Below, piece by piece: positions 1,927-58,080 of a stretch of 64,000 nucleotides of DNA; within the stretch, counting starts at the first letter, position 1; each line of letters opens with the position of its first letter. This stretch comes from Escherichia coli. GTDB lineage: Bacteria > Pseudomonadota > Gammaproteobacteria > Enterobacterales > Enterobacteriaceae. Location: assembly GCF_048403405.1 (NCBI RefSeq), contig NZ_CP183129.1, one strand, 5' to 3'. The notes under the pieces are model-generated. The model saw nothing but the letters and a program-made list of their open reading frames with translations, searched no databases and was not told the origin of the DNA. The position numbers were made by a program, and so were the translations under genes.

Positions 1927-2961
1927 ATGGCTTACTCTGTTCAAAAGTCGCGCCTGGCAAAGGTTGCGGGTGTTTCGCTTGTTTTATTACTCGCTGCCTG
2001 TAGTTCTGACTCACGCTATAAGCGTCAGGTCAGTGGTGATGAAGCCTACCTGGAAGCGGCACCGCTTGCGGAGCTTCATGCCCCGGCTGGAATGATTTTG
2101 CCGGTGACCTCCGGTGATTATGCAATCCCGGTGACCAACGGTAGTGGTGCTGTCGGTAAGGCGCTGGACATTCGTCCACCAGCCCAGCCGCTGGCACTGG
2201 TTTCTGGCGCGCGTACCCAGTTCACGGGCGATACCGCTTCATTGCTGGTGGAAAATGGTCGTGGCAATACTCTGTGGCCGCAGGTGGTTAGCGTGCTGCA
2301 GGCGAAAAACTACACCATCACCCAACGTGATGATGCTGGTCAGACACTGACCACCGATTGGGTACAATGGAACCGTCTGGACGAAGACGAGCAGTATCGT
2401 GGTCGTTATCAAATCTCTGTTAAGCCGCAGGGTTATCAGCAGGCGGTTACGGTTAAACTGCTGAACCTGGAACAGGCGGGCAAACTGGTTGCAGACGCGG
2501 CTTCCATGCAGCGTTACAGCACGGAGATGATGAACGTTATTTCCGCCGGTCTGGATAAATCTGCCACTGACGCCGCGAACGCTGCGCAAAATCGAGCCTC
2601 CACCACTATGGACGTACAAAGTGCAGCTGATGACACCGGTTTACCAATGCTGGTCGTACGCGGGCCGTTCAATGTGGTTTGGCAACGTCTGCCAGCGGCG
2701 CTGGAAAAAGTGGGCATGAAAGTGACCGACAGCACCCGTTCGCAGGGCAACATGGCCGTAACTTACAAGCCGCTGTCTGACAGCGACTGGCAGGAACTGG
2801 GCGCGAGCGATCCAGGCCTGGCATCCGGTGACTATAAACTGCAGGTTGGCGATTTAGATAACCGCAGCAGCCTACAGTTCATCGATCCGAAAGGTCATAC
2901 TCTGACTCAGAGTCAGAACGACGCGCTGGTAGCTGTCTTCCAGGCTGCGTTTAGCAAGTAA
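1927..2961 (+). CDS. bamC: outer-membrane lipoprotein BamC (NlpB), BAM complex component
   Basis: ATG 1927 preceded by AGGGAGA; [28 protein letters not shown] has a lipobox (LAAC); 344 aa; 16 bp after dapA, consistent with a dapA-bamC operon. Confidence 0.92.
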
Positions 2962-2967
2962 AAATAC

Positions 2968-2995
2968 AGGGCTGGAGTCATCCGGCCCTTTTTTC
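2968..2995 (+). terminator. intrinsic terminator after bamC
   Basis: GGGCTGGA-gtca-TCCGGCCC stem (one G-U pair) followed by TTTTTT, 7 bp after the bamC stop. Confidence 0.7.
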
Positions 2996-3004
2996 TGATA
3001 TGAT

Positions 3005-3020
3005 ACGCAAACGTGTGCGT
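3005..3020. promoter_or_regulatory. PurR operator-like box upstream of purC
   Basis: ACGCAAACGTGTGCGT, a near-perfect palindrome matching the pur-box consensus (ACGCAAAC/GTTTGCGT), about 155 bp upstream of the purC ATG. Confidence 0.6.
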
Positions 3021-3065
3021 CGGCAGAAAAATGCGATTTTAGCGGTAATTCGCACAAAATTTGTT

Positions 3066-3110
3066 TGTCGGACGTAGGTCGGATAAGGCGTTCTTGCCGC
3101 ATCTGACAAA
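3066..3110. repeat. REP-type palindromic unit
   Basis: GACGTAGGTCGGATAAGGCGTT...GCCGCATCTGAC matches the REP family motif (GCCGGATGCGGCG / CTTATCCGGCCTAC type) in the bamC-purC intergenic region. Confidence 0.6.
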
Positions 3111-3173
3111 ACATCCGGCACACCAGACAGCAAAAGATTTTAAAACGTTAATTCACACCCAGGAGTGATAAAG

Positions 3174-3887
3174 ATGCAAAAGCAAGCTGAGTTGTATCGT
3201 GGTAAAGCGAAAACCGTATACAGCACGGAAAACCCGGACCTGTTGGTGCTCGAATTCCGCAATGATACGTCAGCAGGGGATGGCGCGCGCATTGAGCAGT
3301 TTGATCGCAAAGGTATGGTGAACAACAAGTTCAACTACTTCATTATGAGCAAACTGGCTGAAGCGGGTATCCCGACTCAAATGGAGCGTCTGCTCTCCGA
3401 TACCGAATGTCTGGTCAAAAAGCTGGATATGGTGCCGGTTGAGTGTGTCGTGCGTAACCGTGCTGCTGGCTCTCTGGTGAAACGTCTTGGAATCGAAGAA
3501 GGTATTGAGCTGAACCCGCCGCTGTTCGATCTGTTCCTGAAAAACGACGCCATGCACGATCCGATGGTCAACGAATCTTACTGCGAAACCTTTGGCTGGG
3601 TGAGCAAAGAGAACCTGGCGCGTATGAAAGAGCTGACCTACAAAGCGAACGACGTGCTGAAAAAACTGTTCGATGATGCTGGTCTGATTTTGGTCGACTT
3701 TAAACTGGAGTTTGGCCTGTACAAAGGTGAAGTGGTACTGGGCGATGAGTTCTCCCCGGACGGCAGCCGCCTGTGGGACAAAGAAACGCTGGAGAAAATG
3801 GACAAAGACCGTTTCCGCCAGAGCCTCGGTGGCCTGATCGAGGCCTATGAAGCCGTCGCCCGCCGCCTGGGTGTACAGCTGGACTGA
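3174..3887 (+). CDS. purC: phosphoribosylaminoimidazole-succinocarboxamide synthase
   Basis: ATG 3174 after AGGAG; [39 protein letters not shown]... (237 aa) is SAICAR synthetase. The track start at 3165 is an upstream GTG. Confidence 0.95.
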
Positions 3888-4054
3888 TTTTTCTGCTCAT
3901 CATCTTGCCGTGCAGCTGGCACGGCAAGACAACCGCTCTCGGAAGATGTGCATTGAACGCTCATTCCTCCGCCATTTCATCCCGCTTTCCTGTGGTAATC
4001 TTCCTCTGAACCACCTACGATCATTTCTATAATGAATATATTGTTGAGGTATCT

Positions 4055-4918
4055 ATGCGTTGGCAAGGGCGACGTGAAAGTGACAATGTTGAAGACAGGC
4101 GCAACAGCTCTGGTGGTCCGTCAATGGGCGGTCCAGGTTTTCGCCTGCCAAGCGGTAAAGGCGGGCTGATTTTACTGATAGTCGTGCTGGTTGCAGGTTA
4201 CTATGGCGTTGATTTAACCGGGTTGATGACCGGACAGCCGGTTTCCCAACAGCAATCAACACGGTCAATTAGTCCTAATGAAGACGAAGCCGCAAAATTC
4301 ACTTCGGTGATTCTGGCAACCACGGAAGACACCTGGGGACAGCAATTCGAGAAGATGGGTAAAACCTATCAGCAACCGAAGCTGGTCATGTACCGTGGAA
4401 TGACGCGCACCGGCTGCGGGGCGGGCCAGTCCATTATGGGACCGTTCTATTGCCCGGCGGATGGCACGGTTTATATCGATCTCTCCTTCTATGATGACAT
4501 GAAAGACAAACTTGGCGCGGATGGCGATTTTGCCCAGGGGTACGTTATCGCCCATGAAGTCGGTCATCATGTGCAGAAACTGTTAGGCATCGAGCCGAAA
4601 GTTCGTCAACTGCAACAAAACGCGACGCAGGCGGAAGTGAACCGCTTATCTGTGCGTATGGAACTCCAGGCCGACTGTTTTGCTGGTGTCTGGGGGCATA
4701 GTATGCAGCAGCAAGGCGTTCTGGAAACCGGCGATCTGGAAGAGGCGCTGAACGCGGCGCAGGCCATCGGCGATGACCGTTTACAACAGCAAAGTCAGGG
4801 GCGAGTAGTACCAGACAGTTTCACTCATGGCACTTCTCAGCAACGCTACAGCTGGTTTAAACGTGGTTTCGACAGCGGCGATCCGGCACAATGCAATACT
4901 TTTGGTAAAAGCATTTAA
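4055..4918 (+). CDS. ypfJ: putative zinc metallopeptidase-like membrane-anchored protein YpfJ
   Basis: Track ORF 287 aa; N-terminal TM segment ([15 protein letters not shown]) and HEXXH-type motif HEVGHH. Confidence 0.8.
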
Positions 4919-4932
4919 CTTCCGGGGCAGGG

Positions 4933-6948
4933 ATGGCTGAACTAACTGCGCTTCACACATTAACAGCGCAAATGAAACGTGAAGGGATCCGCCGCTTGCT
5001 GGTGTTGAGCGGGGAAGAGGGTTGGTGTTTTGATCATGCGCTTAAGTTGCGTGATGCCTTACCTGGCGACTGGCTGTGGATTTCGCCGCAGCCAGATGCT
5101 GAAAACCACTGTTCACCCTCGGCGCTACAAACTTTACTTGGGCGCGAGTTCCGGCATGCGGTATTCGACGCCCGCCACGGCTTTGATGCCGCTGCCTTTG
5201 CGGCACTTAGCGGAACGTTGAAAGCGGGAAGTTGGCTGGTTTTGTTACTCCCTGTATGGGAAGAGTGGGAAAACCAACCTGATGCCGACTCGCTGCGCTG
5301 GAGTGATTGCCCTGACCCTATTGCGACGCCGCATTTTGTCCAGCATCTCAAACGCGTACTTACGGCGGATAACGACGCTATTCTCTGGCGGCAAAACCAG
5401 CCGTTCTCGTTGGCGCATTTTACTCCCCGTACTGACTGGCACCCCGCGACCGGCGCACCACAACCAGAACAACAGCAACTCTTACAGCAGCTACTGACCA
5501 TGCCGCCGGGCGTGGCAGCGGTAACTGCTGCGCGTGGGCGCGGTAAATCGGCGTTGGCAGGGCAACTCATTTCTCGTATTGCGGGCAGTGCGATTGTCAC
5601 CGCGCCCGCAAAAGCGGCAACGGATGTACTGGCACAATTTGCGGGCGAGAAGTTTCGCTTTATTGCGCCGGATGCCTTGTTAGCCAGCGATGAGCAAGCC
5701 GACTGGCTGGTGGTCGATGAAGCCGCAGCTATACCTGCGCCGTTGTTGCATCAACTGGTATCGCGTTTTCCTCGAACGTTGTTAACCACTACGGTGCAGG
5801 GCTACGAAGGCACCGGACGTGGTTTTTTGCTGAAATTTTGCGCTCGCTTTCCGCATTTACACCGTTTTGAACTACAACAGCCGATCCGCTGGGCGCAGGG
5901 ATGCCCGCTGGAAAAAATGGTTAGTGAGGCACTGGTGTTTGACGATGAAAACTTCACCCATACACCACAAGGCAATATCGTCATTGCCGCATTTGAACAG
6001 ACGTTATGGCGAAGTGAGCCAGAAACGCCGTTAAAGGTTTATCAGCTATTGTCTGGTGCGCACTACCGGACCTCGCCGCTGGATTTACGCCGCATGATGG
6101 ATGCACCAGGGCAACATTTTTTACAGGCGGCTGGCGACAACGAGATTGCCGGGGCGCTGTGGCTGGTGGATGAGGGGGGATTATCTCAACAACTCAGTCA
6201 GGCGGTATGGGCGGGTTTTCGTCGCCCGCGGGGTAATCTGGTGGCTCAGTCGCTGGCGGCGCACGGCAGCAATCCTCTGGCGGCGACATTGCGCGGACGG
6301 CGGGTCAGCCGGATAGCAGTTCATCCGGCTCGTCAGCGGGAAGGCACAGGGCGGCAACTTATTGCTGGTGCTTTGCAATATACGCGTGACCTCGACTATC
6401 TTTCGGTGAGTTTTGGTTACACCGGGGAGTTATGGCGTTTCTGGCAACGCTGCGGTTTTGTGCTGGTGCGAATGGGTAATCATCGTGAAGCCAGCAGCGG
6501 TTGCTATACGGCGATGGCGTTGTTACCGATGAGTGATGCGGGTAAACAGCTGGCTGAACGTGAGCATTACCGTTTACGTCGCGATGCGCAAGCTCTCGCG
6601 CAGTGGAATGGCGAAACGCTCCCTGTTGATCCACTAAACGATGCCGTCCTTTCTGACGACGACTGGCTTGAACTGGCCGGTTTTGCTTTCGCTCATCGTC
6701 CGCTATTAACGTCGTTAGGTTGCTTAATGCGTCTGTTACAAACCAGCGAACTGGCATTACCGGCGCTGCGTGGGCGTTTACAGAAAAACGCCAGTGACGC
6801 GCAGTTATGTACCACACTTAAACTTTCAGGCCGTAAGCTGTTACTGGTCCGTCAACGCGAAGAAGCCGCGCAGGCGCTGTTCGCACTTAATTATGTTCGC
6901 ACTGAGCGTCTGCGCGATCGCATAACGCAATGGCAATTTTTTCACTGA
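4933..6948 (+). CDS. tmcA: tRNA(Met) cytidine acetyltransferase TmcA (YpfI)
   Basis: 671 aa; P-loop ARGRGKSA, helicase-like core and C-terminal GNAT-like region; starts 14 bp after ypfJ. Confidence 0.88.
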   Translation: MAELTALHTLTAQMKREGIRRLLVLSGEEGWCFDHALKLRDALPGDWLWISPQPDAENHCSPSALQTLLGREFRHAVFDARHGFDAAAFAALSGTLKAGSWLVLLLPVWEEWENQPDADSLRWSDCPDPIATPHFVQHLKRVLTADNDAILWRQNQPFSLAHFTPRTDWHPATGAPQPEQQQLLQQLLTMPPGVAAVTAARGRGKSALAGQLISRIAGSAIVTAPAKAATDVLAQFAGEKFRFIAPDALLASDEQADWLVVDEAAAIPAPLLHQLVSRFPRTLLTTTVQGYEGTGRGFLLKFCARFPHLHRFELQQPIRWAQGCPLEKMVSEALVFDDENFTHTPQGNIVIAAFEQTLWRSEPETPLKVYQLLSGAHYRTSPLDLRRMMDAPGQHFLQAAGDNEIAGALWLVDEGGLSQQLSQAVWAGFRRPRGNLVAQSLAAHGSNPLAATLRGRRVSRIAVHPARQREGTGRQLIAGALQYTRDLDYLSVSFGYTGELWRFWQRCGFVLVRMGNHREASSGCYTAMALLPMSDAGKQLAEREHYRLRRDAQALAQWNGETLPVDPLNDAVLSDDDWLELAGFAFAHRPLLTSLGCLMRLLQTSELALPALRGRLQKNASDAQLCTTLKLSGRKLLLVRQREEAAQALFALNYVRTERLRDRITQWQFFH

Positions 6949-10015: not shown

Positions 10016-10050
10016 TGAAAAAGGCGACACATTGGCATGTCGCCTTTTTT
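10016..10050. terminator. bidirectional intrinsic terminator between ypfM (+) and acrD (-)
   Basis: A-run, GGCGACA-cattggca-TGTCGCC stem, then TTTTTT; lies 6 bp from the acrD stop. Confidence 0.75.
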
Positions 10051-24674: not shown

Positions 24675-24692
24675 TTCATTCTTAACTCTCAC

Positions 24693-24727
24693 GCTTACCC
24701 TGAATATTCAGGGTAAGCGGTTTTCCT
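24693..24727 (+). terminator. strong intrinsic terminator after maeB
   Basis: Perfect palindrome GCTTACCCTGAATA/TATTCAGGGTAAGC followed by GGTTTTCC, 19 bp after the maeB stop. Confidence 0.8.
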
Positions 24728-38707: not shown

Positions 38708-38752
38708 CCTGTCGGAGGTGCCGGGTGTCCTACAACACCCGGCATTAACATC

Positions 38753-55096: not shown

Positions 55097-55124
55097 AAAA
55101 ATGGCGCCCATCGGCGCCATTTTT
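55095..55124. terminator. bidirectional intrinsic terminator between pdxK (+) and crr (-)
   Basis: AAAAAA-ATGGCGCC-catc-GGCGCCAT-TTTT; perfect 8-bp stem. Confidence 0.8.
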
Positions 55125-58051: not shown

Positions 58052-58080
58052 AAAAAAGCACCTGAAAAGGTGCTTTTTTA
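58052..58080 (-). terminator. intrinsic terminator after cysK (hairpin usable in both directions)
   Basis: Minus strand: AAGCACC-ttttc-AGGTGCTT followed by TTTTGTGG, 22 bp after the cysK stop. Confidence 0.75.

Follow-up and report, generated by a model that had tools for sequence, protein, structure and literature searches.

A stem-loop without a U-tract at the mapped 3′ end of the purC transcript in Escherichia coli

The purC message of Escherichia coli K-12 grown in M9 is mostly monocistronic, ending directly behind a GC-rich stem-loop in the purC–ypfJ spacer, with ∼20 % of transcripts reading through into ypfJ. We consider this hairpin to be a 3′-end-defining, exonuclease-blocking structure of the class found on Rho-dependent transcripts, and would put the probability of the full account, in which the parts played by Rho and by exonuclease trimming are what we infer, at roughly 60 %. 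According to this account, transcription from the PurR-controlled purC promoter (TSS 3011) would run past the stop codon, and the stem-loop would fold just clear of the terminating ribosome's footprint. For lack of a U-tract behind it, the hairpin would not release RNA polymerase, which would move on instead into a C-rich, G-poor spacer (approximately 3933–4054), where Rho most likely loads and would end the majority of transcripts upstream of, or close to, the start of ypfJ. The uneven tails would subsequently be digested as far as the stem by the 3′-to-5′ exonucleases PNPase and RNase II, leaving a precise, stable purC 3′ end at 3930–3932. The hairpin would in this way define the end of the message and shield it from exonucleolytic decay and, together with the downstream termination zone, would partly insulate ypfJ–tmcA and their promoter from purine-regulated transcription, about one-fifth of purC transcripts running on into ypfJ.

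In kind and in instance this hairpin is already known, its 3′ end having been catalogued in 2018 as an unnamed ‘novel TTS’. Modestly new are the conservation of its position alongside turnover of its sequence and the existence of a two-allele spacer. It supplies a defined 3′ boundary for purC and a clean, well-conserved example of a 3′ stem-loop that lacks a U-tract; beyond annotation, its importance is small.

The hairpin and its genomic setting

All coordinates refer to the window, meaning the whole 64 000-nt stretch of E. coli DNA that was analysed, unless K-12 positions are given. The chromosomal order is bamC–purC–ypfJ–tmcA, all on the + strand: bamC occupies 1924–2961, purC (SAICAR synthetase, 237 aa; from the ORF list and from how RefSeq annotates E. 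coli records of identical or nearly identical sequence) 3174–3887, ypfJ (a member of the zinc metallopeptidase family, into which read-through transcripts extend from upstream) 4055–4918, with its ATG at 4055, and tmcA 4933–6948. The published purC TSS (K-12 2597781) corresponds to position 3011, giving a 163-nt 5′ UTR, and is overlapped by a PurR-box-like palindrome, ACGCAAACGTGTGCGT, at 3005–3020. The 5′ UTR also holds a REP-like element (3065–3121; GTAGGTCGGATAAGGCGTTCTTGCCGCATCTGACA…), for which a weak, sub-threshold Rfam match to naRNA4 was obtained (28.2 bits against a gathering threshold of 59.5, E = 0.011).

The purC stop codon (TGA, 3885–3887) is followed by a 16-nt spacer, the 17th nucleotide past the stop being the first stem base of a hairpin at 3904–3928 that consists of CTTGCCGTGC (3904–3913), the loop AGCTG (3914–3918) and GCACGGCAAG (3919–3928), with ACAACCGCTC directly 3′ of the stem. 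The first-pass annotation had proposed a perfect 10-bp stem-loop in this place, and its sequence and coordinates proved exact; an 11th pair, U3903–A3929, lies beyond the perfect 10 bp, and the 3′-terminal stem-loop of the purC mRNA, as defined by sequence and fold, thus spans 3903–3929 on the + strand (11-bp stem, 5-nt loop). As RNA, this sequence forms one hairpin, with a ΔG of −17.6 kcal/mol (z = −4.5), a stability reached by none of 200 dinucleotide shuffles, and seven of the ten perfect pairs are G–C. The 8 nt past the stem, ACAACCGC, contain no U, in agreement with the earlier statement that the stem is not followed by a U-run, and the sequence upstream, TTTTTCTGCTCATCAT, is not A-rich and has no A-tract. 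A scan for terminators of the hairpin-plus-T-run type did not call the purC hairpin and did call the bamC terminator at 2968–2989, and an Rfam 15 scan of 2900–4200 with E-values up to 10 returned no match over 3880–3960.

Across the 64-kb window, perfect hairpins of ≥ 10 bp with a loop of 3–8 nt gave 13 register hits, which fall at six separate sites, compared with an expectation of 0.27 per window from dinucleotide shuffles, and on this ground the purC hairpin is not a chance feature. That it should be a functionless inverted repeat is hardly credible for further reasons, as a transcript 3′ end has been mapped to the site, the stem stays constant while its flanks are polymorphic and the position of the hairpin is kept in the 79-species comparison described below.

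The mapped 3′ end and read-through into ypfJ

The end of the purC transcript was taken from SMRT-Cappable-seq of K-12 in M9 (Yan 2018, Supplementary Data 1; PMC6131387), a method that sequences 5′-triphosphate (primary) transcripts at full length. Positions were converted as window = 2600792 − K-12 coordinate, which places the hairpin at 2596864–2596888 on the minus strand of NC_000913.3. The purC site is an exact row of the M9 table of ‘novel TTS’ (2596861–2597781, reverse, 88 / 58 / 19 / 8 / 1077, ‘novelTTS’, b2476), and its read-through is quantified there: 88 reads begin at the purC TSS 2597781, 58 of which stop at 2596861, eight stop ≤ 50 bp past it, and 19 pass it by ≥ 50 bp, their median extension of 1077 nt reaching to about the end of ypfJ (PMC6131387). 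This catalogue gives coordinates and counts alone; the hairpin is not named in it and no mechanism is assigned.

In window coordinates, the monocistronic purC transcript ends at 3930–3932 on the + strand (K-12 2596861, possibly 0-based), 1–3 nt past the 11-bp stem, the position being ambiguous over A3931/A3932 (after C3930) because 3′ poly(A) was trimmed from the reads (PMC6131387). As a control, the bamC end is found at 2597797 by SMRT-Cappable-seq (PMC6131387) and at 2597798, corresponding to window 2994, by Term-seq (PMC7815308); as the two are 1 nt apart, the reverse-strand starts of the former appear to be 0-based. SMRT-Cappable-seq 3′ ends are indirect, being obtained by poly(A) tailing and trimming, and its authors state that some may derive from processing (PMC6131387). 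The first-pass annotation had set 3′ ends near 3930 against transcripts that simply read through into ypfJ. With 58 of 88 reads ending at 3930–3932, and read-through accounting for a minority of 19, its tentative interpretation of the hairpin as a Rho-assisted or RNase-protective 3′ structure of purC is supported: ends pile up right behind the stem, in a sequence context that fits the stem-loops without a U-tract known from Rho-dependent transcripts.

The purC row is missing from the rich-medium sheet of the same study (PMC6131387), as is to be expected given that purC is PurR-repressed. The transcription units listed in its Supplementary Data 2 comprise purC alone (as in RegulonDB), a novel purC|ypfJ unit and a dapA-to-ypfJ unit (PMC6131387). 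Transcripts of the last kind are accounted for by read-through of the intrinsic terminator behind bamC (2968–2997; hairpin 2968–2989, AGGGCTGGAGTCATCCGGCCCT and then TTTTTTCT), which amounts to 40 % in M9 and 11 % in rich medium by SMRT-Cappable-seq (PMC6131387).

In a Term-seq and bicyclomycin study, the bamC end is listed, and at purC there is no curated 3′ end and no Rho region (PMC7815308). As the curated lists are stringent, and as the bicyclomycin work of these authors (Adams et al.) was reportedly performed in rich medium, where purC is repressed, we regard this absence as weak evidence against an involvement of Rho. Nor does purC figure among the terminators of a 72-terminator study, the BATTER preprint makes no mention of purC, and our literature search found no paper describing the structure of the purC hairpin.

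Termination, trimming and the downstream spacer

The sharpness of the mapped end raises the possibility that the hairpin, perhaps with NusA or NusG, itself frees RNA polymerase without a U-tract, the mapped end then being the point of termination. Two-thirds of the reads do end at one position right behind a strong GC-rich hairpin, and the equivalent hairpins of other genera include some with a classic U-tract (e.g. loci L035, L046, L038 and L024 of the comparison set), such that the E. coli hairpin could be a decayed intrinsic terminator with some activity left. The bamC terminator offers a likeness close at hand: the two GC-rich hairpins resemble each other in size and energy, each comes soon after a stop codon and has a transcript 3′ end behind it, and read-through is partial at both. 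Unlike the bamC hairpin, however, which is followed by TTTTTTCT, the purC hairpin is followed by 8 nt without a single U, and goes uncalled by the terminator scan. For hairpin-driven release, E. coli RNA polymerase depends on a weak rU:dA hybrid. The U-tract of ∼7–9 nt, with the 3′ end inside it, that characterizes intrinsic terminators is absent here, and the 3′ end lies 1–3 nt from the stem instead of the usual 5–9 nt, compared with 5–6 nt for bamC in the same data. Given the lack of U past the stem, we do not regard the hairpin as a canonical intrinsic terminator, and release by the hairpin itself is, in our estimation, an improbable explanation of the end; some residual intrinsic activity is possible, as the hairpins of many relatives have U-richer tails.

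A better fit is provided by the stem-loops described by Dar & Sorek (2018), in whose data Rho-dependent transcripts have precise steady-state 3′ ends just past stable stem-loops. These structures show reduced U, no upstream A-tract and an enrichment of C over G downstream, and the diffuse downstream ends are trimmed back to them by PNPase and RNase II (PMC6061677). The purC hairpin shares with this class a stable stem-loop (−17.6 kcal/mol) directly upstream of the dominant 3′ end, the lack of both a U-rich tail and an upstream A-tract, a C-over-G enrichment downstream (C26/G8 at 3960–4037) and a location in an intergenic spacer shortly past the stop codon. The class is also defined by bicyclomycin-dependent read-through and by PNPase/RNase II trimming, and it is by the sequence criteria that purC can be assigned to it. 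Trimming by these exonucleases would probably be the source of the precise purC end; the eight of 88 reads that end ≤ 50 bp downstream are compatible with this, and are not diagnostic of it.

Rho would be the likely terminating factor, and the candidate rut site or termination zone is a C-rich, G-poor tract at 3960–4037 on the + strand, whose 78 nt include 26 C and 8 G. Its C/G ratio of 3.25 corresponds to the 99.9th percentile of all 78-nt segments on this strand, there are 24 YC dimers in 3930–4054, and the spacer is untranslated up to the ypfJ ATG at 4055. The tract is common to both spacer alleles described below, which share their right flank from 3963. As it also extends over the ypfJ promoter region, which is conserved, there may be another cause for its composition. 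The ypfJ TSSs 2596784 and 2596763 correspond to window 4008 and 4029 (Supplementary Data 2; PMC6131387). The promoter (3993–4008, + strand) would be of the extended −10 type, TGgTAATCT at 3993–4001 having the right spacing for the TSS at 4008, and a TGTGGTAATC/TATGGTAATC motif located there is kept across genera. In many enterobacterial genera the sequence TTTCCTGTGGTAATC (3986–4001; TATGGTAATC in relatives) is retained 3′ of variable hairpins.

An unlikely explanation dispenses with termination in the spacer altogether: purC–ypfJ co-transcripts would be cut downstream by an endonuclease and trimmed back, the hairpin acting solely as a decay barrier that sets the differential stability of the purC and ypfJ segments. 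Co-transcripts of the purC|ypfJ and dapA-to-ypfJ kind do exist (PMC6131387), the concession by the SMRT-Cappable-seq authors that some of their 3′ ends may be processed applies here as elsewhere, and stem-loop barriers such as REP elements are well known. Against this, the 5′-triphosphate transcripts enriched by the method resist RNase E entry, yet only 19 of 88 extend past the site. In addition, ypfJ has a conserved promoter and TSSs of its own at 4008 and 4029, as would be expected if upstream transcription were largely stopped, and the composition of the spacer is strongly rut-like. We favour termination by Rho followed by trimming, for which the REP/BIME barriers, such as that of malE–malF, offer a parallel: there too an intergenic palindromic stem-loop stabilizes the upstream message, with Rho termination downstream, as is proposed for purC. 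Unlike REP/BIME sequences, the purC hairpin is single-copy and bears no resemblance to the REP-like element at 3065–3121. An identity as a dispersed repeat or REP was also considered and rejected, since each of the 3,805 carrier genomes has it at one locus and the window holds a single match at ≤ 3 mismatches.

Variation within E. coli and across species

The hairpin allele is present in 3,805 of 5,426 complete E. coli genomes (∼70 %). Both a 78-bp segment and a 35-nt core around the hairpin occur at one locus per genome in these 3,805 genomes, a second ‘place’ of the core being the palindrome read from the complementary strand. All 3,805 carriers have ≤ 2 mismatches in the core, in keeping with the loop variants TG and TA. 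In eight E. coli alleles sampled to span the identity range, none of 22 stem positions was variable, compared with 13 of the 52 nearby positions outside the stem, counted from the stop codon to 3962 (Fisher p = 0.0075), and within the hairpin the loop alone varies (AG/TG/TA). Furthermore, E. albertii carries C3913U, a change that keeps a G·U pair possible in the sense RNA only. Within E. coli, the contrast between stem and non-stem positions demonstrates selection on the structure, and the E. albertii change points to pairing in the sense strand.

In the remaining major allele the 67-bp segment that holds the hairpin (3896–3962, + strand) is swapped for an 827-bp vapB–vapC toxin–antitoxin cassette. 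This allele is found in 1,617 of 5,426 genomes (∼30 %), and the two alleles together account for 5,422 of 5,426. The dimorphic spacer corresponds to 3896–3962 in the window, to 1097–1923 in L001 and to 3444–5407 in L002; the shared flanks are identical, ending at G3895 and resuming at A3963, and the cassette has no terminal repeats. The vapBC allele brings its own 13-bp hairpin in the region AUUUAGCCGGAGG-GUAC-CCUCCGGCUAAAU (L001 1107–1136), with −24.9 kcal/mol in context. Its sequence is unrelated and is not followed by a U-tract, and it lies at the same distance past the purC stop. As unrelated hairpins occupy the one site in the two alleles, it is the stable stem-loop that would matter and not its sequence. 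The GCCGGAGG core of the vapBC-allele hairpin resembles Pseudescherichia purC-proximal hairpins (L033, L034), which hints that the cassette came with a foreign purC 3′ flank, and the presence of the hairpin allele in E. albertii suggests that the vapBC allele is the derived state. In NZ_CP101269, an ISVsa5-family IS4-like element lies between vapB and vapC.

The existence of two alleles also bears on whether the palindrome acts as DNA, i.e. as the site of a dimeric regulator of ypfJ or as a recombination site tied to the vapBC polymorphism. In favour of such a role, the segment exchanged for vapBC includes the palindrome, whose perfect 10-bp inverted repeat has its centre ∼92 bp upstream of the ypfJ TSS. 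A DNA-level role is nevertheless very improbable: the junctions (3895/3896 and 3962/3963) are outside the palindrome, the cassette lacks terminal repeats, the ypfJ promoter is unchanged in the 30 % of genomes without the palindrome, and there is one copy per genome with no other match in the window at ≤ 3 mismatches. Moreover, what is kept across genera is pairing potential and not sequence, and the sense-orientation G·U pairs would be A·C mismatches on the other strand. We likewise rejected the idea that the hairpin is a vapBC remnant or att site, as the 67-bp segment shows no homology to the cassette, terminal repeats of either kind, inverted or direct, are absent, and the position of the junctions contradicts an att site as well.

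A possible outer helix around the hairpin would pair 3895–3901 with 3945–3951 (GCUCAUC/GAUGUGC), and some alleles (Nissle type) swap G–C to A–U at 3895/3951 and repair a U·U mismatch at 3897/3949. This helix is unproven, with 85.7 % pairing, two pairs disrupted in K-12 and 70 of 500 shuffles reaching its score.

The alleles also invite the more far-reaching proposal that the hairpin is a tunable, factor-assisted terminator, at which the ∼20 % read-through would couple purC, induced by purine starvation, to ypfJ–tmcA–ypfH, and at which selection for a 3′ hairpin, whatever its sequence, would be so strong that a single species keeps two unrelated hairpins as alternative alleles of the site (70 %/30 %); we hold this to be doubtful at best.

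Beyond E. coli, we compared 79 purC loci from Enterobacterales and other Gammaproteobacteria. In nearly all of these a strong hairpin starts 0–45 nt past the purC stop, with a mean best ΔG of −19.5 kcal/mol compared with −11.4 kcal/mol for shuffled sequences, and 74 of the 79 reach −14 kcal/mol or lower. Between genera the hairpin sequences are unrelated. As for their tails, ∼12 loci have ≥ 6 U in the 8 nt past the hairpin and ∼34 have ≤ 3 U, tallies that are approximate since hairpin boundaries were drawn from a 45-nt sliding fold. The hairpin position is thus kept across Enterobacterales despite sequence turnover, and this turnover, together with the two E. coli alleles, supports the view that any stable stem-loop may serve to protect the 3′ end. 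An alignable hairpin family is formed by Enterobacter, Leclercia, Pluralibacter and Pseudocitrobacter, in which compensatory changes occur at six of 11 pairs; the covariation score of this family is 0.295 compared with 0.148 for shuffled alignments (reached by 0 of 500), slid controls give ≤ 0.133, and its G·U pairs are in the sense orientation.

Perfect hairpins of ≥ 10 bp are also present at five further sites in the window, 10020–10047, 24692–24719, 38719–38744, 55097–55124 and 58052–58079. The first of these (AAAGGCGACA…TGTCGCCTTT) is the sequence found at a strong Term-seq 3′ end of Adams et al., K-12 2590726, which is antisense to acrD.
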